DNA from: an uncultured Mageeibacillus sp.
Lineage (GTDB): Bacteria > Bacillota > Clostridia > Saccharofermentanales > DTU023
DNA length: 61,434 nucleotides
Assembly (NCBI GenBank): GCA_964486135.1
Contig: CAZAKT010000002.1
Span: 1 to 61,434 of the forward strand
Direction of reading: 5' to 3'
Every line of letters starts with the position of its first letter. Positions within the stretch are counted from its first letter, which is position 1. This document shows positions 1,703 to 56,711 of the stretch, piece after piece. The notes beneath the pieces are model-generated. The model worked only from the letters and a program-made list of their open reading frames with translations, made no database searches and was not told where the DNA came from. A program made the position numbers and the translations under genes.

Positions 1703-3701
1703 CGATATCGGCAACGAGCACGCCCGGAAAAATCTGTTACTGGCAGAGCAAAGCGGCCTGGAACTGTCCCCTGAGGACCTTGAGGCTTACCGGACGAAGC
1801 GGGCGGAGGCGCTGGCGGATGAGAAGACCTTCCTCCAGGCGGCGGCAGAGAGAAAAACAGGATACGAGGAGGAGGTCTCAGAGAGCGACCCCCGGATCCG
1901 GGGCTGGTTGCTTGAGGCAAAAGAACATGAGGCCCGGGCCGCCTTCTATGAACCCCTGGTCGGAATCGACTATGACTTTGAGCTCCATTACGGTGAAAGC
2001 CGCGAAATAGCGGAACAGTTGCCGCGGATCGCGGCAGGGCGGCAGGTCCTGCTGGAAGAGCGGGCGGCCGCTGAAAAAGCCCTGGCGGAGGCCCGGGCAA
2101 CAGGTCAGGAGGCGGAGGAGGCTAGCTGGCGGGAGGCCAGGAAGGAAGGCCTGGATCGGCTTAAGGAGGAAGGGGCTGAGCTTAAAAAGTCCTACCGGGA
2201 GGGCAATATCTCAGCCAAGGCCTACGCCAATGAAAAAAGGGAGAAGCGGCGGGCCGCCAAGGATGAAATCCGGTCCGGCAAGCGCCGGCTTCCAGTCAAC
2301 TTGCAAGTTGAGCGCCTGCGCCAGGCCAAACACAGGCTGAAATATGAAACAAGGAGCCAGTTGAGGGTCCTTAACTCCGATCTTTCGGATCTCCGCCGGA
2401 AGACTCCCCTGGAGACAGAGAGACGAAGGCCCCACCTCTCCTGGTTGACCTGGCCCCTCCCCGGGCTCGGTCAGTTCCTGCTCGGCCAGCGCCTGAAGGC
2501 GGCCTTCTTCTTCCTGGGAACCCTCTACTTCTATCTGCTGGCCCTCCCCTATGCCCTGGGATACGGCAACTATCGGGGACAGGGCCTTTTCGGCCTGGTC
2601 TCGCTTGCCCAGGAGGGGAGCCGGCTGGACCGCTCGGTCATCTTCATGGTGGAGGGCGTCATCGCCATCCTCCTCCTCCTGATCGGACTCTTTATCTTCT
2701 ATCAATCCTACCGCGACGTCAGCCGGGTTGAGAAGAATATGATCCGGGGTATCCGGATGAACAATTGGTTTGAGACCAGGAGCTCGATCAAGAGGGGGGG
2801 CTTCCCCTTCTTCGCCACGGCGCCGGCGGCCCTGGTCACCCTCTTCATCGTCCTCCTCCCCATCGCCGTGACCATCCTGATCTCCTTCACCAACTACGAT
2901 CCCAGCCACCAGTCAAAGTTCAACTGGGCAGGCCTGGCCAACTACAAGCAGGTCGTGCTGGGCCAGGGAATCGCCGGCGGGCCCTTCTGGCATATCACGG
3001 GCTGGACCATCCTCTGGACCCTCTTGGCGACCAGCCTGGCCATTATGATCGGCTTTGTCCTGGCCCTGCTGGTCAACCAGGATCGAATCTACGGCAAGCG
3101 GCTCTTCCGGACGGTCTACCTCCTGCCCTGGGCCGTGCCGGCCTTCATCACGATCATGTTCTTTTCGATTATGTTCTCGCCGGAAGGGCCCTTGACGGAG
3201 GTCCTGTCCAGCCTGGCCGGCCAGATTACCAATATAAAATACTCAAGCTGGGGGACCCGGATGGTCCTCATCCTGCTCCAGGGCTGGCTGGGTTCCTCCT
3301 ACGTCTTCCTCCTCTGTACCGGGATCCTCCAGGGGATACCCAAGGACCTTTACGAGGCGGCCCGGATAGACGGGGCGACCGGCTACCAGGCCATCCGCCA
3401 TATCACCCTCCCCCTCCTCCTCTTCCAGACGGCACCCCTCCTGATCGGCCAGTATACTTTCAACTTCAATAATTTCTCCATCATCTACCTCTTCAACGGC
3501 GGCGGCCCCTTTGAGCCATCCAAGTACGGTAATATCGCGGGGTCTTCCGATCTCCTGATCTCCTATATCTACAAACTCACCATACAGAAACAGTATCAGG
3601 GGATAGGTTCGGCCATCACCCTGATCGTTTCACTCGTTTTGATCTTCTTTGCCTGGATCGGCTTCAGCCGGTCCAAGGCCTTTCGGGAGGAAAGACTATG
3701 A
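1677..3701 (+). CDS. Maltodextrin ABC permease (MalF/MalC-like) with a ~250-aa charged N-terminal extension
   Basis: PGLGQ segment, YLLPWAVPAFITI, and EAA motif LYEAARIDGA. The N-terminal third is E/K/R/A-rich and helical. Confidence 0.9.
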   Translation: MDYPKTVFDDIGNEHARKNLLLAEQSGLELSPEDLEAYRTKRAEALADEKTFLQAAAERKTGYEEEVSESDPRIRGWLLEAKEHEARAAFYEPLVGIDYDFELHYGESREIAEQLPRIAAGRQVLLEERAAAEKALAEARATGQEAEEASWREARKEGLDRLKEEGAELKKSYREGNISAKAYANEKREKRRAAKDEIRSGKRRLPVNLQVERLRQAKHRLKYETRSQLRVLNSDLSDLRRKTPLETERRRPHLSWLTWPLPGLGQFLLGQRLKAAFFFLGTLYFYLLALPYALGYGNYRGQGLFGLVSLAQEGSRLDRSVIFMVEGVIAILLLLIGLFIFYQSYRDVSRVEKNMIRGIRMNNWFETRSSIKRGGFPFFATAPAALVTLFIVLLPIAVTILISFTNYDPSHQSKFNWAGLANYKQVVLGQGIAGGPFWHITGWTILWTLLATSLAIMIGFVLALLVNQDRIYGKRLFRTVYLLPWAVPAFITIMFFSIMFSPEGPLTEVLSSLAGQITNIKYSSWGTRMVLILLQGWLGSSYVFLLCTGILQGIPKDLYEAARIDGATGYQAIRHITLPLLLFQTAPLLIGQYTFNFNNFSIIYLFNGGGPFEPSKYGNIAGSSDLLISYIYKLTIQKQYQGIGSAITLIVSLVLIFFAWIGFSRSKAFREERL

Positions 3702-9724: not shown

Positions 9725-10171
9725 ATGCTTACAAATGAAGTGAAGGTCAAGCTGGTGGCGGAAGCTTTCGAGGCACGAAAAAAGAGTTATTCCCCTTATT
9801 CCAGATTCAAGGTCGGCGCCGCTCTCCTGACTTCGGATGGCCGGATCTATAGGGGGGCCAATATCGAAAACGCTTCCTATGGCGCCACCATCTGCGCGGA
9901 GAGGACAGCGGCGGTCAAGGCTGTCTTCGCGGGTTCCAGGCAATTTGTCGCCCTGGCGGTCGTCGGCTCTGAACAGGAGGAGGGCGGAGACATAGACTAT
10001 GCCTATCCCTGTGGGATCTGCCGGCAGTTCCTGCGCGAATTCCTGCCGCCTTCGGGCGATATGGTCATCCTGGTGGCCCGGGGCCTTGAAGATTACAAGG
10101 AAACAAGCCTGAATGCCCTGCTGCCGCATTCATTCGGGCCATCTGATCTCGATTATCTGTATGAGTCTTAG
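9725..10171 (+). CDS. cdd: Cytidine deaminase
   Basis: SYSPYSRFKVGAAL, NIENASYG, CAERTA, PCGICRQ zinc motif. Confidence 0.96.
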   Translation: MLTNEVKVKLVAEAFEARKKSYSPYSRFKVGAALLTSDGRIYRGANIENASYGATICAERTAAVKAVFAGSRQFVALAVVGSEQEEGGDIDYAYPCGICRQFLREFLPPSGDMVILVARGLEDYKETSLNALLPHSFGPSDLDYLYES

Positions 10172-48879: not shown

Positions 48880-49896
48880 TCAGTGGGTGCTGAAGAAGCG
48901 GACCGCATTTCGCTGGACGATGAATTTTTGAGTCTCATGCCATTTTCCCTTGGCCAGGTTGCTGGCATAGAAGTAGTAGATGGGGTGTTGGACCCCGCTC
49001 CCCCCCTGGTCAAAGACAAAGGAGACAGCCTGCTTGACGGTCTGGGAGACATTCTTCCTGACAGGAGCGGTATAACCGTACTTGCGCTTGATGACAGCCG
49101 CGCTGTTGGTGCCCGACCTTACCATGGAGTCGCGGATACACTGGGAGACCAATACGGCACCGATGTAATCATTTCCATACTCACCCATGACCAGGCCCTC
49201 AAGAACTTGTCTGTCCGAAACCTGGAGCGACCGACCCTGGTAGCTCCTGTCAGGATTGGCTATTTCAATCAAGAATTGGCCATTCCCTGGAGCGGCTGCT
49301 GGACTCTCCTCCGGACTGGTGGTCTCGGCAGGAGGATTCCCCTCTGTTTCCTGAGCAGCTTGCTCCTGGGCAGCCTTCTCAGCCGCAGCCTTCTCTTCCG
49401 CTGCCCTCTTTTCAGCCGCCTTCTTTTCTGCAGCCTTTTTCTCAGCCGCCTTCTTCTCCGCGGCCTTTTTCGCCGCCGCCTTCTCCTCAGCCTCTCTCTT
49501 TTCCTCTTCGAGCCTGGCCTCTTCACTCAGCCTAACCCGCTCTTTTCTCTCTTCCTCTTCGGTTTCCATCCGGGCCAGGCGTTCCCAGCGCTTCAGATTT
49601 CTTTCACTGTCGGCCGAGGTCCCTGTATCCAGTTCAATCTCTTTTTCGGCTTCCGTGTCCATACCGGGTAGATCTGAAAGGTTCCGGTCAATGACGTCCG
49701 TATCAAATATTAGGAAGTCCTTGCCATCCTGCAGACTTAAGTAGGGTTCGTCCTCTCCGGCATCCAGACCGGATGAACTCCGGTCGGCCTGGGCACCACT
49801 GCCCGCGATTGCCGCCGTCACCGGCAGGGATAGCAGGGTAGCCGTCAGGACGGCACCAGCCATAAGTCGTTTATATCTGTTTAACTTAGCTTTCAT
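48880..49896 (-). CDS. Exported protein with an A/E/K-rich helical spacer and a C-terminal SleB/Hydrolase_2-like cell-wall hydrolase domain
   Basis: Signal-peptide-like N-terminus, AEKKA repeats, LEGLVMGE (aligns by eye to the SleB catalytic Glu in AVYGE), IYYFY...WHETQKF...VRFF. Confidence 0.65.
   Translation of the reverse strand: MKAKLNRYKRLMAGAVLTATLLSLPVTAAIAGSGAQADRSSSGLDAGEDEPYLSLQDGKDFLIFDTDVIDRNLSDLPGMDTEAEKEIELDTGTSADSERNLKRWERLARMETEEEERKERVRLSEEARLEEEKREAEEKAAAKKAAEKKAAEKKAAEKKAAEKRAAEEKAAAEKAAQEQAAQETEGNPPAETTSPEESPAAAPGNGQFLIEIANPDRSYQGRSLQVSDRQVLEGLVMGEYGNDYIGAVLVSQCIRDSMVRSGTNSAAVIKRKYGYTAPVRKNVSQTVKQAVSFVFDQGGSGVQHPIYYFYASNLAKGKWHETQKFIVQRNAVRFFSTH
49365..49490 (-). repeat. 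Imperfect 15-nt tandem coding repeat (AEKKA)n
   Basis: EKAAAKKAAEKKAAEKKAAEKKAAEKRAAEEKAAAEKAA, with synonymous divergence between units. Confidence 0.85.
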
Positions 49897-50360
49897 TTCA
49901 GCCTCATACTTTCTAGCCAAACCACTCCCACTTGACACGCAGCAAAACCAGACATCAGACGTAGAACGATATAGGGGCTCGCGTTGGGGGGTTTTTTTGA
50001 CTGTAGTTACCTTAACGCACCCTACCGGCCCATCAAAGGGTTAAATAGACGAATCTGCCAGGCTGTTGGGGTCCTTATGCTGTCATTAAACAGAAAACAG
50101 CCTGTGCAAAAAGAGAGGAAGTGAAGGATAATACGGGCATAAGCTGACATAATGGACAAAATTCAGGCAGGGACAACTGTCAAATTATCAAGCTTGGAAT
50201 AGCTGTAATAGCATAGGGGCAGGCCCTTCGAGCCATTATATTCCACCAGGAGGAGGAAAATCCCGGTTTTGGGGTGGGAGCCGGCTCCTGGCAGTTCCCG
50301 AAAAAGGGTCTAAAATGAAACTATTGTGAAGAGAATTTGAATCCCGGGAGGAGAAGGAAG

Positions 50361-51460: not shown

Positions 51461-52888
51461 CTAAAGGCCGGCGATGGTTTCGCGGAGCAGCTCCTCTACC
51501 AGCAGGGGATTGGCCCTGCCGCCCGTCTGTTTCATTACCCCCCCGACCAGTGACCGCAGGGCGCTTTCCTTGCCCTTGAGGAAGTCCTTGAGGGCCCGTT
51601 CGTTGGCGGCCAGGGCCGCCTCGATCGCGGGCTGAAGCCTCTCGCGGTCATTGATCTGGCCAAGATCATGTTCGGCGATATAGTTGACCGGATCAAAATC
51701 CTTTTCCATCAGGGCCTTCAGGACCTTCCGGCCGGTATTGCTGTTGATCTCATCCTTGGCCAGGAGGTCGGCCAGTTTGCCCAGGCTGACGGGGTTGAGC
51801 AGGTCTTCCTCCGTCTCCTCTGTGTAGAGGGGGGCGATATCCGCCAGGATCAGATTGACCAGGGTTTTGACATTCCCGGTCGCTGCCGCCGCTTTTTCAA
51901 AGAAATCCGACAGCTCCTTGTCGTCAGTGAGCCGCTCCGCCTCGTATTCTGTCAGGTCGAAGTCCCTGATATATTGGGCCTTCCGCTCATCGGCCAGCCT
52001 CGGAATGCCAGCCCGGATCTGTTCGATCTCCGCTGTTTCCACCTCAACGGGGACCAGGTCGGGATCTGGGAAATAACGGTAGTCGGTCGCCTCATCCTTC
52101 AAGCGCATAGGATAGGTCTGGCCGGTCTTCTCATCGTAGCGGCGGGTTTCTGAAATGATTTCATCCCCCGCCTCCAGGAGGCTGACCTGACGTTTGAACT
52201 CGCTTTCTATGGCGCGGGCGATGAAGTTGAAGGAGTTCAGGTTTTTGAGCTCGACCCGGGTGCCCAGGGCCGACTCGCCCTTCTTGCGGACGGAAAGGTT
52301 GACATCGCATCGGAGAGATCCCTCGTTCATCTTACCGTCGGATATGCCGGTGTAACGGGCCATGGCCCGCAACTTCCTCAGGTAGGCGACGGCCTCTTCC
52401 CCATTTCGGATATCCGGTTCGGAGACAATTTCGATCAGGGGGACGCCACAGCGATTGCAGTCAACCAGGGTGCCCTCATCCGTATGGATAAGCTTGCCGG
52501 CGTCCTCCTCCATATGGATCCGGTTGATGCGGATCCGCCTGACCCCGTCGCCCGTGGCGACCTCCAGGTAGCCCTTGGTGCAGATGGGAAAAAAGTTCTG
52601 CGTGGTCTGGAAGGCCTTGGGAAGGTCGGGATAGAAGTAGTTCTTCCGATCAAAGCGAGACCAGCCCTCAATTGAGCAATGGGTCGCGATACCGGCCCGG
52701 ATGGCAAATTCAACAACCTCGCGGTTCAAGGCGGGGAGGGTCCCCGGCAAGGCCAGACAGACGGGACAGACCTGCGTATTGGGCGGCGCGCCGAAGCTGG
52801 TCGCGCAATTGCACAGGAGTTTATGCTCCGTCTTCAATTCGATATGGACTTCAAGTCCGATTACAGATTCATAGTCCTGCAGGCTCAT
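51461..52888 (-). CDS. gatB: Asp-tRNA(Asn)/Glu-tRNA(Gln) amidotransferase subunit B
   Basis: IGLEVHIEL, RKNYFYPDLPK, HMEEDAGK, NRCGVPLIEIVSEP, YRYFPDPDL, C-terminal YqeY-like tail. Confidence 0.96.
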   Translation of the reverse strand: MSLQDYESVIGLEVHIELKTEHKLLCNCATSFGAPPNTQVCPVCLALPGTLPALNREVVEFAIRAGIATHCSIEGWSRFDRKNYFYPDLPKAFQTTQNFFPICTKGYLEVATGDGVRRIRINRIHMEEDAGKLIHTDEGTLVDCNRCGVPLIEIVSEPDIRNGEEAVAYLRKLRAMARYTGISDGKMNEGSLRCDVNLSVRKKGESALGTRVELKNLNSFNFIARAIESEFKRQVSLLEAGDEIISETRRYDEKTGQTYPMRLKDEATDYRYFPDPDLVPVEVETAEIEQIRAGIPRLADERKAQYIRDFDLTEYEAERLTDDKELSDFFEKAAAATGNVKTLVNLILADIAPLYTEETEEDLLNPVSLGKLADLLAKDEINSNTGRKVLKALMEKDFDPVNYIAEHDLGQINDRERLQPAIEAALAANERALKDFLKGKESALRSLVGGVMKQTGGRANPLLVEELLRETIAGL

Positions 52889-54357
52889 AGGATCACCTCT
52901 CCAGGGATGGGCAGGAGCCCGTGCGCGTCCTCATAATGGGCAGCCAGCCTGTAAAGCAGACCCTCGGAGAAGCGGGGTCCTACAAGCTGCATGCCGATGG
53001 GCAGACCGGCGTCCGTCATCCCAATCGGCAGGGACAGGGCGGGGAGGCCGGCCAGGGAGGGGGGGAGGGTAAAGCGGTCGTTGCTGTATTTGCCGCCACC
53101 CGCCTCTTCGGGTGAACTGCCCAGGGGCCAGGCCGGTGTCGCGGTGACCGGGGTCAGGAGGGCCTGGCAGCTATGGAAGACCTGGTTCAGCTCTTCAGTG
53201 ACCAGGGTCCTTACCTGGGCCGCCTTGAGGAAGTAGTCCTGGTAGTGTTCCTCGGAGAGGGCCAGGCCGCCAAGCAGGATCCGCTCTTTGACTTCAGGGC
53301 CGAAGGCCTGGCCCCGGGACTTGAAGTAAATGTCCTCCAGGCTTTCGGCCTCGGGGCTCCTGAAGCCAAAATGGATACCATCGTAACGGTTCAAGGTGGA
53401 GAAGCCCTCCGCGCCTGAGATGATGTAATAGGCGGCAAGCGCCGCTTCGACCGTCTTCAGGTCAACCGGGACCAGGCGGGCGCCGGCCGACTCAAAGAAG
53501 GCAAGGGCGGCCTCCAGTCCCTTCTTGATAGTGGGATCCAGATCGCCTGACTCGAAATAAGCCCTCGACCAGCCGATGACGGGATTGCCCAGATCCCCCT
53601 CCAGGAGCTCTGTATAGGCGGGGCCCTCCCGGCCCAGGCTATGGACATCCTTCTTGTCCCTCCGGGCGATGGTCTCGAGCACAAGCGCATTATCACGCAC
53701 GCTCCGGGTCATGGGGCCGACCTGGTCAAGTGAAGGGGCAAAGGCTGTGACGCCCCGTCTTGAGACCAGGCCGTAGCTGGGGCGAAGGCCAACCAGTCCA
53801 CAAAGGGCCGAGGGCTGCCTGATGGATCCACCCGTGTCCGTTCCGAGCGCGAAACAGGCCTCACCAGAGGCCACGGCAGCTGCGGATCCTCCGGAACTAC
53901 CGCCGGGCACGCGCGACAGATCATAGGGATTACGTGTTGGATGGAAGGCTGAGGATTCCGTTGAATGTCCGATGGCGAATTCATCCAGATTGGCCTTGCC
54001 GAGCAGGACCACCTCCTCCTGTTTGAGCAGGCGCCAGACGTAGGCATCGTAGGGGGGGATAAAATTTTCAGTCATCCGGGAGCCGTTGGTCGTGGGGATT
54101 CCCTTGACTGCGATATTGTCCTTCAAAGCACCTGGAAGTCCTGCGAGAAGAGCTAGTTGACGCTTTTCAGCCAGGAGGCGGTCGACATGGTCGGCCTGGT
54201 TCAAGGCCAGATCCCGCGTCAGCGTGATGTAGGCGCCGACCCTTTCCTCCTGGGCCCCGATCCTGTCATATATGGCCTCCGTCAGTTCCCGGGAGGAGAA
54301 AAGTCTCTTGCGCAAGCCCTCTGCCAGTTGTCTCAATTCCATTGTTTGGTATTTCAT
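52885..54357 (-). CDS. gatA: Asp-tRNA(Asn)/Glu-tRNA(Gln) amidotransferase subunit A
   Basis: Amidase signature KDNI, PGGSSGGSAAAVA, GTDTGGSIRQP; ATGA coupling to gatB. Confidence 0.95.
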   Translation of the reverse strand: MKYQTMELRQLAEGLRKRLFSSRELTEAIYDRIGAQEERVGAYITLTRDLALNQADHVDRLLAEKRQLALLAGLPGALKDNIAVKGIPTTNGSRMTENFIPPYDAYVWRLLKQEEVVLLGKANLDEFAIGHSTESSAFHPTRNPYDLSRVPGGSSGGSAAAVASGEACFALGTDTGGSIRQPSALCGLVGLRPSYGLVSRRGVTAFAPSLDQVGPMTRSVRDNALVLETIARRDKKDVHSLGREGPAYTELLEGDLGNPVIGWSRAYFESGDLDPTIKKGLEAALAFFESAGARLVPVDLKTVEAALAAYYIISGAEGFSTLNRYDGIHFGFRSPEAESLEDIYFKSRGQAFGPEVKERILLGGLALSEEHYQDYFLKAAQVRTLVTEELNQVFHSCQALLTPVTATPAWPLGSSPEEAGGGKYSNDRFTLPPSLAGLPALSLPIGMTDAGLPIGMQLVGPRFSEGLLYRLAAHYEDAHGLLPIPGEVIL

Positions 54358-54368
54358 AGCCTATCCCC

Positions 54369-56516
54369 TCATTCGACCACGGAGGGCACCAGGAAAAAGC
54401 CATCCTGTGCCGCCGGCGCGTTCCGCAGGGCATCTTCCTCCGACAGCGGCGGTTCATCCTCTTCAGTCAAGTGGACATGGCGGGCTTCGGAAGCCGTGAA
54501 CATAGGCGAAACCCCCTCCGTATCCAGAGCTTGGAAGGCGTCGGCCAGGCCAATAAGCTCTTTCAGCCGGGCGCCAATAATCTCTTCTTCCTCCCGGTTT
54601 AGATCAAGCCGGGTCTGTTTTTTCAGCCGGTCAAGATCAATCTCGATCGGCCGTTTCCGCCCCGGATCCGGGCCGGCTGTCCCAGTGGATGAGCCGGGAT
54701 GCCCGCTAAGGCAAATGCCCAATTCATCCAGCTGGCCAGGGCTGACCGTCGAAGGACTCCCTGTCATGGGGCAGGAGGCGTCGCGGACTTTGGGGAAGGC
54801 AATGACATCACGCAGGGATTGCTCTCCTGCCAGGACCATGACAAGGCGGTCGAGGCCGAAGGCAAAGCCACCATGGGGCGGGGCCCCATAACGGAAGGCC
54901 TTGAGCATGAATCCGAACCGGTCATCAATGGCCTGGTCGGTCAGACCCAGCGCCTTGAAAACCTGCCTTTGAATAGACTGCTGGTGGATCCGGATGCTGC
55001 CTGAACCGAGCTCGATGCCATTCAGCACGAAGTCATAGGCCTGGGACCTGACCCGGGCCGGGTCGCTGACAAGGAGGTCAAGGTCCTCCGGGAAGGGCAT
55101 GGTGAAGGGATGGTGCTGGGCCAGGAAGCGCTTCTCCTCCTTGGAATACTCGAACATGGGGAAATCAGTGATGATGGCAAAGGCGAAACGACCGGGGTCG
55201 CGCAGGCCCAGGAGTTCTGCCAGCCTCAACCTGAGCGCGCCGGTGACCTGCCGGACCTTCTCCAGCGAGTCGGCCGAAAAGAGGATGAAGTCGCCCGGTT
55301 TCGCGTCCGCCCGCTCGAGCAGGGCCTCCAGCTTCTCCTGATTGACAAACTTGGAAAGGATGGAGTAGATCTCGCCTGAGGGACGCCAGGCGATCCAGGC
55401 CATACCGGCCGCCCCCTGGGAGACGGCATAGTCCGTCAGGTCCTCGATGGTCGCCCGGGAAAAGTCTGCTTGGCCGGGTACCGTGATGGCGCGCACGACG
55501 CCACCTCCCGCGACCGCTTTTTCAAAGACGGAAAAGCCGCTCTCCCCGGCCAGGTCCGTCACATCGACAATGGGCAGATCGAAGCGGAGGTCAGGTTTGT
55601 CGCTGCCGTACCTGTCCATGGCCTCCGCCCAGCTGAAGCGGGGAAAGGGTTGGGGGAGGTCAATGCCCTTGACCTCCTTGAGGATGGAGCGGAAGAGGCC
55701 TTCGAGCAGGACCAGCACGTCTTCCACCTCGACAAAGGACATCTCCATATCGAGCTGGGTGAATTCGGGCTGGCGGTCGGCGCGGAGGTCCTCGTCACGA
55801 AAGCAGCGGGCAATCTGGTAATAACGGTCCAGACCCGAGACCATGAGCAGTTGCTTGAAGAGCTGGGGGGACTGGGGAAGGGCGTAGAAGGAGCCAGCAT
55901 GGACACGGCTGGGGACCAGATAATCCCGGGCGCCCTCGGGGGTGCTCTTGGTCAGGAGGGGGGTCTCAACATCAACGAAACCCGCCTGGTCCATAAACTG
56001 GCGGATAGCGCTTGTCACCCGGTGACGGAAGCGGAGGTTGGCGAGGAGGCGGGGCCGCCTGAGGTCGAGGAAACGGTATTGGAGCCTCAGATCCTCCCGC
56101 ACCTCATCCGCGTCCGAAGGATCGAAGGGCAGTGGCGCGCAGGGGGCTAGGAGTTCAGCCTCCCTGACCCGGAGTTCGACGGAACCTGTCGCGATCTTGG
56201 GATTGACAGTCTCCTCATCCCGGAGGCGCATGACCCCCCTGACCAGGATCACGGATTGGTTGCGGACCCCTTCGGCAAGCGCGAAGGATTCCGCCTGGGT
56301 GTATTCGGGATTGAAAACAGTCTGGAGCAGGCCCTCCCGGTCGGCAAGATCGATGAAAATCACACCGCCCATATCACGCTTGGTCTCAACCCAGCCGCAG
56401 GCAACTGTCTCCTGCCCGATATCCTCTTCGGAGAAAAGTCCGCAATAGTTTGTACGTTCCATACACTTGAACCCAATTCCAGGCCACAGGCCGCTGTTCG
56501 CCAGGATAAGGTCCAT
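54369..56516 (-). CDS. aspS: Aspartyl-tRNA synthetase fused in frame to GatC (AspS-GatC)
   Basis: RTNYCG, RDMGG, ETPLLTKSTPEGARDY, ARCFRDEDLRADRQPEFTQLD, GAD insertion and PPHGGFAFGLDR. After a G/S/P linker comes a GatC-like tail ending ALRNAPAAQDGFFLVPSVVE. The start is at 56516 or 56462. Confidence 0.92.
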   Translation of the reverse strand: MDLILANSGLWPGIGFKCMERTNYCGLFSEEDIGQETVACGWVETKRDMGGVIFIDLADREGLLQTVFNPEYTQAESFALAEGVRNQSVILVRGVMRLRDEETVNPKIATGSVELRVREAELLAPCAPLPFDPSDADEVREDLRLQYRFLDLRRPRLLANLRFRHRVTSAIRQFMDQAGFVDVETPLLTKSTPEGARDYLVPSRVHAGSFYALPQSPQLFKQLLMVSGLDRYYQIARCFRDEDLRADRQPEFTQLDMEMSFVEVEDVLVLLEGLFRSILKEVKGIDLPQPFPRFSWAEAMDRYGSDKPDLRFDLPIVDVTDLAGESGFSVFEKAVAGGGVVRAITVPGQADFSRATIEDLTDYAVSQGAAGMAWIAWRPSGEIYSILSKFVNQEKLEALLERADAKPGDFILFSADSLEKVRQVTGALRLRLAELLGLRDPGRFAFAIITDFPMFEYSKEEKRFLAQHHPFTMPFPEDLDLLVSDPARVRSQAYDFVLNGIELGSGSIRIHQQSIQRQVFKALGLTDQAIDDRFGFMLKAFRYGAPPHGGFAFGLDRLVMVLAGEQSLRDVIAFPKVRDASCPMTGSPSTVSPGQLDELGICLSGHPGSSTGTAGPDPGRKRPIEIDLDRLKKQTRLDLNREEEEIIGARLKELIGLADAFQALDTEGVSPMFTASEARHVHLTEEDEPPLSEEDALRNAPAAQDGFFLVPSVVE

Positions 56517-56548
56517 AAAAAAGCCACCTGCTCCCGGCAAGTGACTGT

Positions 56549-56557
56549 ATTTTAACA
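56549..56557 (-). promoter_or_regulatory. Extended -10 promoter of aspS-gatCAB
   Basis: TGtTAAAAT about 30 nt upstream of ATG 56516. Confidence 0.55.
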
Positions 56558-56711
56558 TAAGGGGGGCCTCTCCTCCCCAAGCGGACCCGGGCTGGAGCTC
56601 CCTTGGGGAGGAGCTCTTGACTCTTCTTTGCCGCCAGCGGCGGGGGGCGCCCTCAATGGGACGGAGGGAGGGCCCGCTTGTGCTAAACTCGGATTACGAG
56701 AGAAGCGGTGG

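Follow-up and report, generated by a model that had tools for sequence, protein, structure and literature searches.

Transamidosomes are the textbook means by which a cell avoids releasing a mischarged tRNA. To our knowledge, all transamidosomes characterised so far are non-covalent assemblies, which differ in their stability. Here, we analysed a stretch of 61,434 nucleotides (nt) from an uncultured Mageeibacillus sp. (contig CAZAKT010000002.1; hereafter, the window), in which aspS, the gene for aspartyl-tRNA synthetase (AspRS), continues in frame into gatC, the gene for subunit C of the amidotransferase GatCAB, and is followed by gatA and gatB. Based on this covalent link and on the operon structure, we propose, with a probability of about 0.7, that the fused protein forms a covalently tethered asparagine (Asn) transamidosome of composition (AspRS-GatC)2·GatA2·GatB2.

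The known Asn-transamidosomes use the tRNA as a scaffold and range from stable (Thermus thermophilus) to dynamic (Helicobacter pylori) complexes (PMC3367201). The non-covalent assemblies of T. thermophilus (3KFU), Pseudomonas aeruginosa (4WJ3) and H. pylori bring together the same activities as those proposed here, i.e., an AspRS of the non-discriminating kind (ND-AspRS), GatCAB and tRNA(Asn), and follow the same logic for handing over Asp-tRNA(Asn) (PMC3367201). Like the window protein, the AspRS of 4WJ3 is of the bacterial type with a GAD domain. Whereas these assemblies are held together by the tRNA, the link in the window would be a peptide bond, which does not depend on the tRNA.

In 2012 and 2013, Saad et al. 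(cited in PMC4206432) reportedly described a T-box-controlled operon of Clostridium acetobutylicum that encodes ND-AspRS and GatCAB for tRNA-dependent synthesis of Asn-tRNA(Asn), in which aspS and gatC are reportedly separate genes. The window differs from that operon in having a leader without a T-box. A tether between GatC and a misacylating synthetase is present in PDB entry 3AL0, whose chain C ('subunit C,Linker,Glutamate--tRNA ligase 2') is, in contrast to the window protein, artificial; additionally, it has the opposite order, in which the synthetase N-terminus is attached to the GatC C-terminus, and carries a glutamyl-tRNA synthetase of the Gln pathway. The engineered structure is that of the Thermotoga maritima glutamine transamidosome.

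Two further systems are comparable in part. In Mycobacterium smegmatis, a mutation selected in the laboratory removes the gatC stop codon and thereby joins the GatC C-terminus to GatA, impairs the enzyme and increases mistranslation, and the fusion is predicted to disturb the contacts of GatB with the tRNA (PMC7541841). The mutant and the window share a covalent bond between GatC and a second protein of the pathway; in the window, however, this bond is made through the GatC N-terminus, and the C-terminus remains free. The placement of AspRS on the GatC N-terminus makes sense because the C-terminal GatC-GatA fusion impairs the M. smegmatis enzyme. The glutaminyl-tRNA synthetase of Deinococcus radiodurans has a C-terminal YqeY/GatB-like domain (PMC1865053), i.e., an amidotransferase-derived domain at a synthetase C-terminus, as in the window AspRS. 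However, the appended domain is a tRNA-binding module and not a subunit that would recruit a whole amidotransferase.

The closest record of the architecture is the curated equivalog NF009460 of NCBIfam (PRK12820), named 'bifunctional aspartyl-tRNA synthetase/aspartyl/glutamyl-tRNA amidotransferase subunit C', which has the same AspRS(GAD)-linker-GatC organisation. Residues 5-696 of the window protein align to positions 24-722 of the 723 positions of this profile, in whose members gatA and gatB also come next. At 650 bits, the window protein remains below the cutoff of 1379 bits, and a Desulfobacterales protein (P0152) scores 1188 bits. The profile appears to have been built from sequences of the Desulfobacterota-type clade described below (clade II), whereas a neighbour-joining (NJ) tree places the window protein in a separate, apparently independently arisen Clostridial clade (clade I). 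Clade II further differs from clade I in the residues at two positions of the anticodon-binding domain (the H31/G83 type), in the lack of a T-box and in its linker lengths. Clade-I proteins are named 'Multifunctional fusion protein' in UniRef and only 'aspartate--tRNA ligase' at NCBI. The initial annotation of the window was unsure whether such a fusion had been reported. Its presence in NCBIfam and UniRef makes the architecture less novel than it might have been; on the other hand, a full-text literature search retrieved no paper describing a natural AspRS-GatC fusion, which is weak evidence given that most subscription journals lie outside the coverage of the search. The architecture is therefore already catalogued, but we know of no description of the clade in Clostridia, of its control by Asn T-boxes or of the seemingly twofold origin of the fusion.

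The fused gene and its operon

A single reading frame on the minus strand, 54369..56558, is free of stops across AspRS, linker and GatC; the parts of the operon and its leader given below lie on this strand. Based on the open reading frame (ORF) and on domain matches, we localized aspS::gatC at 54369..56462, with its stop codon at 54369-54371 and a product of 697 amino acids (aa). The start is almost certainly the ATG at 56462 (MERTNYCG) and not the ATG at 56516 proposed initially, because the homologues in the protein alignment begin with M-x-R-T-x-Y-C-G and because, in the closest relative (L003), the counterpart of the ATG at 56516 is out of frame and meets a stop after five codons. Apart from this start, the in-frame AspRS-linker-GatC fusion of the initial annotation was recovered as one open ORF with Pfam and NCBIfam domains, and its coordinates needed correction by at most 3 nt.

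The AspRS part begins with an N-terminal oligonucleotide-binding (OB)-fold anticodon-binding domain (residues ~22-105, 56148..56399; Pfam PF01336 tRNA_anti-codon, E=1.6e-12), which contains the motifs KRDMGG (with M31) and RLRDEETVNPKIATG (with E84 and T85). The class II catalytic core, tRNA-synt_2, follows at residues ~123-559 (54786..56096; PF00152, E=2e-121) and holds the bacterial GAD insertion at residues ~313-404 (55251-55526; PF02938, E=2e-18). The three class II motifs are invariant across the homologue alignment (A1), and scores of 810 bits for NF001750 (cutoff 443) and 738 bits for TIGR00459 (cutoff 374) identify a bacterial-type AspRS of class IIb. This part ends at residue 583 with the sequence ...PGQLDELGI.

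The linker, CLSGHPGSSTGTAGPDPGRKRP, comprises the 22 residues 584-605 (54648..54713), is rich in G, S, T and P and has a basic patch at its end. It leads into the GatC domain (residues 606-697, 54372..54647), which begins with IEIDLDRLKK and has a free C-terminus, ...NAPAAQDGFFLVPSVVE. The domain covers all 66 model positions of Pfam PF02686 (46.9 bits, cutoff 23; E=3e-12) and positions 4-93 of the 93 of NCBIfam gatC TIGR00135 (55.3 bits, cutoff 47.1), and its alignment with GatC chains of known structure (3H0L_C, 2DF4_C, 4WJ3_C and 3KFU_G) extends over the full length. In an AlphaFold2 (AF2) model of the monomer, the GatC part shows helices at residues 610-617 and 623-644 and then an unstructured tail, a predicted shape that is expected for GatC in the absence of GatA and GatB.

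The gene gatA (52885..54357; 490 aa; Pfam Amidase, E=4e-135; TIGR00132, 493 bits against a cutoff of 481) starts with an ATG at 54357, 11 nt past the aspS::gatC stop, with GAGGGGA ahead of it, and both the amidase signature GGSSGGS and the motif GGSIRQP are intact. It overlaps by 4 nt (ATGA) with gatB (51461..52888; 475 aa), whose product has GatB_N and a YqeY tail according to Pfam and scores 600 bits with the NCBIfam GatB equivalogs. The tight aspS::gatC-gatA-gatB operon described initially thus stands, and its order is conserved in relatives. In the same way, a hidden Markov model (HMM) built from GatC domains found no second GatC in the 61-kb window at E<=10, in agreement with the earlier remark that a separate gatC is absent.

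Distribution and origins of the fusion

In a search of 5.8 billion proteins, we examined the best 120 clusters at 90% identity, which have 57-100% identity to the window protein. The same four Pfam domains are present in 119 of them; the exceptional cluster, P0034, stops inside the linker and hence has no GatC part. The clusters come from NCBI, JGI, ENA and Logan, and cultured isolates (Fournierella massiliensis, Bianquea renquensis and Clostridiaceae bacterium NSJ-31) are among them. Additionally, we scanned one genome per GTDB species with a query that included the AspRS C-terminus and analysed the best 80 loci; the resulting counts are lower bounds and silent on prevalence. By tblastn and ORF analysis, 57 of these loci are fused and 23 are unfused.

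Each of the 57 fused loci has a single ORF of about 690-720 aa. The gatA gene lies next to it in 56 (the sequence of the exception ends about 230 nt past the ORF), gatB follows gatA wherever the contig is long enough (about 45 fused loci), and hisS was found upstream in none of the 57. The unfused loci, mostly of Lachnospiraceae, have neither gatA nor gatB within 5 kb in any of the 23 cases, and 15 show the canonical hisS-aspS arrangement. Among the matches listed, no assembly prefix is common to fused and unfused loci, which has no bearing on genome content. A relative with 83% identity has aspS::gatC-gatA-gatB in full synteny with the window (RDD, patatin, SbcD and SbcC on one side and an M42 peptidase on the other), and a relative with 59% identity has the same gene order in an unrelated neighbourhood.

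The Clostridia with the fusion comprise Oscillospiraceae, Christensenellales, metagenome-assembled genomes (MAGs) of the Saccharofermentanales type, Fusibacter, Tissierellia, Peptostreptococcaceae, Acetoanaerobium and Ca. Epulonipiscium. Other fused loci belong to Desulfobacteraceae, Syntrophus, Smithella and Thermodesulfobacteriota, and single fused MAGs are labelled Caldithrix, Verrucomicrobia, Dehalococcoidia and Competibacteraceae. The fused Clostridial clade has no entry of its own among the 150 listed representatives at 50% identity, which are mainly unfused AspRSs plus one clade-II fusion. The architecture, which the initial annotation knew from the window only, is widespread, and all close relatives are fused; relatives with separate genes, which that annotation named as a finding that would speak against it, were not found among them. 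The fusion is real, conserved and recurrent, and its conservation in independent assemblies excludes chance or an artefact as its source.

Some MAG records in cluster P0103 split the fusion into adjacent fragments, e.g., a 239-aa 'amino acid--tRNA ligase-related' protein and a 338-aa 'GatC' on one Bianqueaceae contig. These splits are probably frameshift errors, and they illustrate one way in which a long 'GatC' can enter the annotation in place of the fusion. Two other AspRS fusions were seen among the representatives: in P0150 (744 aa), a YbaK-type aminoacyl-tRNA editing domain (PF04073, E=2e-29) is attached to the C-terminus of AspRS, and P0122 (1029 aa) unites a histidyl-tRNA synthetase and AspRS in one polypeptide.

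We computed an NJ tree of the AspRS core from the Kimura distances of 221 sequences, without bootstrap. The fused proteins fall into exactly two clades, both free of unfused sequences, and unfused AspRSs lie between the two. Clade I consists of 35 sequences from Clostridia, that of the window included, and its sister group is formed by unfused Lachnospiraceae-type AspRSs; clade II consists of 20 Desulfobacterota-type sequences. Fitch parsimony requires at least two gains of the fusion. Considering the two fused clades, that the fusion arose at least two times is therefore a reasonable reading of the tree, not proof, and repeated gain argues for selection on the fusion.

Within clade II, a subclade of Syntrophus, Smithella and ORM2a (L082, L042, L050, L052, L065, L068 and L077) has a GatA-like protein after the fusion. 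This protein (L082:5441-6640 in ORM2a, CP113000.1) has only 399 aa and 26% identity to the window GatA and lacks the N-terminal ~70 residues; QPNI and GSKAGE replace KDNI and GGSSGGS, which gives the amidase signature a degenerate look. The 'GatC' at the C-terminus of the fused protein of this subclade has no BLASTP similarity to the window GatC. The GatA-like protein may be a pseudo-glutaminase subunit.

The putative tethered Asn-transamidosome and its alternatives

In the proposed assembly, one bifunctional polypeptide would provide a complete bacterial-type AspRS with GatC at its C-terminus on a short flexible linker, and the same mRNA would supply GatA and GatB. The GatC domain would wrap the GatA-GatB interface like free GatC in the solved GatCAB structures, and each protomer of the AspRS dimer would be covalently tied to one GatCAB, giving the composition stated above. 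The AspRS moiety would load Asp onto tRNA(Asn), and the acceptor end would then pass to the tethered GatB site for phosphorylation, followed by amidation with ammonia from the GatA glutaminase and release of Asn-tRNA(Asn). The tether would make the assembly independent of tRNA and protein concentration, fix a 1:1 stoichiometry and keep more of the mischarged Asp-tRNA(Asn) from escaping. That every GatCAB of the cell is chained to an AspRS and that the tether channels its substrate, as put forward in the initial annotation, are likewise predictions. A ratio of one GatCAB to one AspRS protomer agrees with the chain counts of 4WJ3, in which the GatC sequence is present in 4 chains, the AspRS sequence being present in 5 chains over 4WJ3 and 4WJ4. 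With a flexible tether, GatCAB might still be free to amidate Glu-tRNA(Gln) as well; the need for this activity would depend on the presence of a glutaminyl-tRNA synthetase in the genome.

Regulatory sequences of the relatives are the strongest available, though indirect, support for an operon that makes Asn-tRNA(Asn). Of 33 distinct clade-I loci, 23 have a T-box ahead of the fused gene; apart from that of L010, these T-boxes end 44-230 nt upstream of it. In all 23, the specifier loop reads GAA-N(1-2)-AAC followed by A (U in two), with the Asn codon AAC invariant. The base before AAC is G in 19 leaders (GAAC; e.g., L001 9678-9934 and L037 3070-3310) and A in four. As a control for the register, L019 holds a divergent T-box with the reading GAA-G-UUC-A ahead of pheS, whose identity was confirmed by Pfam. 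No T-box was found before unfused aspS in the 17 loci scanned or in the 20 clade-II loci. Because AAC is the specifier in 23 of 23 T-boxes, the fused operon in most Clostridial lineages is predicted to be induced by uncharged tRNA(Asn) and not by tRNA(Asp). In L010, a roe-deer gut MAG, an insertion of about 960 nt (2390-3347) with a 244-aa ORF parts the Asn T-box from aspS::gatC.

Several observations weigh against the tethered Asn-transamidosome. The subclade of the window (the window, L003, L004 and L005) has no T-box; therefore, the argument from Asn sensing comes from more distant members of clade I. No Rfam family, the T-box (RF00230) included, was matched in the window leader, whether with the gathering threshold or with E<=10. 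H31 and G83 of the P. aeruginosa ND-AspRS have been linked to the recognition of tRNA(Asn); their counterparts in the window protein are M31 and E84, although this is a lead from one species and no universal rule. The AF2 model, built from a shallow alignment of 17 sequences, has a mean predicted local distance difference test (pLDDT) score of 69 and, as a monomer, is silent on the complex.

A comparison of 221 AspRSs at the two recognition positions showed M (L in the Peptostreptococcales and Tissierellia members) plus E or D in clade I, H plus G in clade II, and K or L in the unfused Lachnospiraceae. The initial annotation held that the anticodon-domain residues do not settle whether the enzyme is discriminating, and for clade I this still holds. 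For the N-terminal half of the protein, the best PDB match was the P. aeruginosa structure 4WJ3 (306 bits), followed by E. coli (297 bits) and T. thermophilus AspRS1 (291 bits), a gap too small to matter.

These residues also bear on the alternative that survives best, in which the fusion serves co-expression or a chaperone-like role without channelling. AspRS would then be an ordinary, possibly discriminating enzyme, and the fusion would only secure a stoichiometric, stable GatC for a GatCAB that perhaps mainly makes Gln-tRNA(Gln). The lack of H31/G83-type residues in clade I, which has M31 and E84 instead, and the lack of an Asn T-box in the window subclade are in its favour, as are the GAAC leaders (19 of 23 T-boxes), where AAC, the codon for Asn, shares bases with GAA, a codon for Glu. 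The T-box of the C. acetobutylicum transamidation operon is likewise reported to have overlapping GAA and AAC codons and to bind both tRNA(Glu) and tRNA(Asn). Nevertheless, the specifier is AAC throughout and never an Asp codon (GAC or GAU), which speaks for tRNA(Asn) as the regulatory signal. Furthermore, GatC was added to AspRS in two apparently independent clades and no other GatC-bearing synthetase turned up in the searches run, and the unfused sister AspRSs lie in hisS-aspS operons without gatA and gatB. Considering both sides, we regard a role restricted to co-expression as unlikely.

A further alternative is that the fusion exists at the gene level only, with GatC freed by proteolysis of the linker or made by internal initiation, which would yield an ordinary GatCAB and a free AspRS. 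The linker is predicted to be disordered (AF2 pLDDT below 50 over residues 555-606) and is, in principle, accessible to proteases. Additionally, 8 of 34 loci have an in-frame GTG or ATG with a Shine-Dalgarno-like sequence near the junction. However, the candidate internal starts vary in position and type and are absent in 8 of the 34 loci, close relatives of the window among them. At the window junction, the sole in-frame codon of a start type is a TTG (the Leu of LDELGI), which has no Shine-Dalgarno sequence. No Met is kept at the start of the GatC domain, as judged from the homologue alignment and from a comparison of linkers. The initial statement that the GatC domain lacks a start codon with a ribosome-binding site of its own is hence borne out in the window and extends to its relatives, in which no internal start is conserved. 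Moreover, there would be no point in keeping the frame open in more than 55 species and in two clades if AspRS and GatC were made apart. Separate GatC production seems improbable to us, more so than the co-expression role.

The linkers of clade I have 15-24 aa (median 19) and unrelated sequences, yet the frame is always kept; those of clade II have 16 or 32-36 aa. Many clade-I linkers finish with a short basic run before GatC, such as GRKRP, KRKTP, GGKKAA or KKKKS. The corresponding part of the window linker lies at 54648-54662. This run could be a conserved contact with the tRNA or with GatA/GatB.

Lastly, a sequencing or assembly artefact, in which two neighbouring genes, aspS and gatC, were merged by a lost stop or a frameshift, is effectively refuted by the same ORF in independent assemblies: the split fragments in some MAG entries of cluster P0103 show that errors occur, but the ORF is continuous in 119 of the 120 best clusters, isolates included, and in at least 57 species-representative genomes, and the differing linker sequences are always in frame.

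Beyond the window, we lean slightly towards a broader reading of the tethered Asn-transamidosome, in which an obligate, tRNA-independent covalent form evolved at least twice. Its Clostridial version would be a dedicated 'indirect asparaginyl-tRNA synthetase' of three genes that responds to uncharged tRNA(Asn) by being switched on, common in Oscillospirales-type bacteria of guts and digesters and biochemically uncharacterised. If this is true, nature provides in these operons a test for selection on the channelling of substrate in transamidosomes, and the recurrence of a covalent version suggests that it is of selective value for GatCAB to adjoin AspRS. Fused and split constructs would provide a system for measuring the effect of the tether on fidelity and rate, with the Asn-specific T-boxes as an added regulatory handle. 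Additionally, the many Clostridial genomes in which the protein is labelled 'aspartate--tRNA ligase' appear to have no gatC, which would mislead reconstructions of the Asn- and Gln-tRNA pathways.

Leader region and other features of the window

The leader, or intergenic region, of the fused gene, which has no T-box, spans 56463..56627. It contains an extended -10-like sequence, TGTTAAAAT, at 56549-56557 and, adjoining it, a hairpin with a 10-bp stem and a T6 run at 56522-56546. Both elements are conserved in L003, at ~10090-10135. They could be a promoter plus an attenuator. A GC-rich inverted repeat is located at 56569-56614. No tRNA genes and no other class IIb synthetase were found in the window.

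Downstream of the operon, the minus-strand ORF at 48880-49938 encodes 352 aa with a long Lys/Ala/Glu-rich repeat, AAEKKAAEKKAAEKK..., and has a weak match to Pfam HC2 (E=3e-4), below the cutoff. A counterpart of 345 aa, without a Pfam match, lies in the syntenic position in L003.

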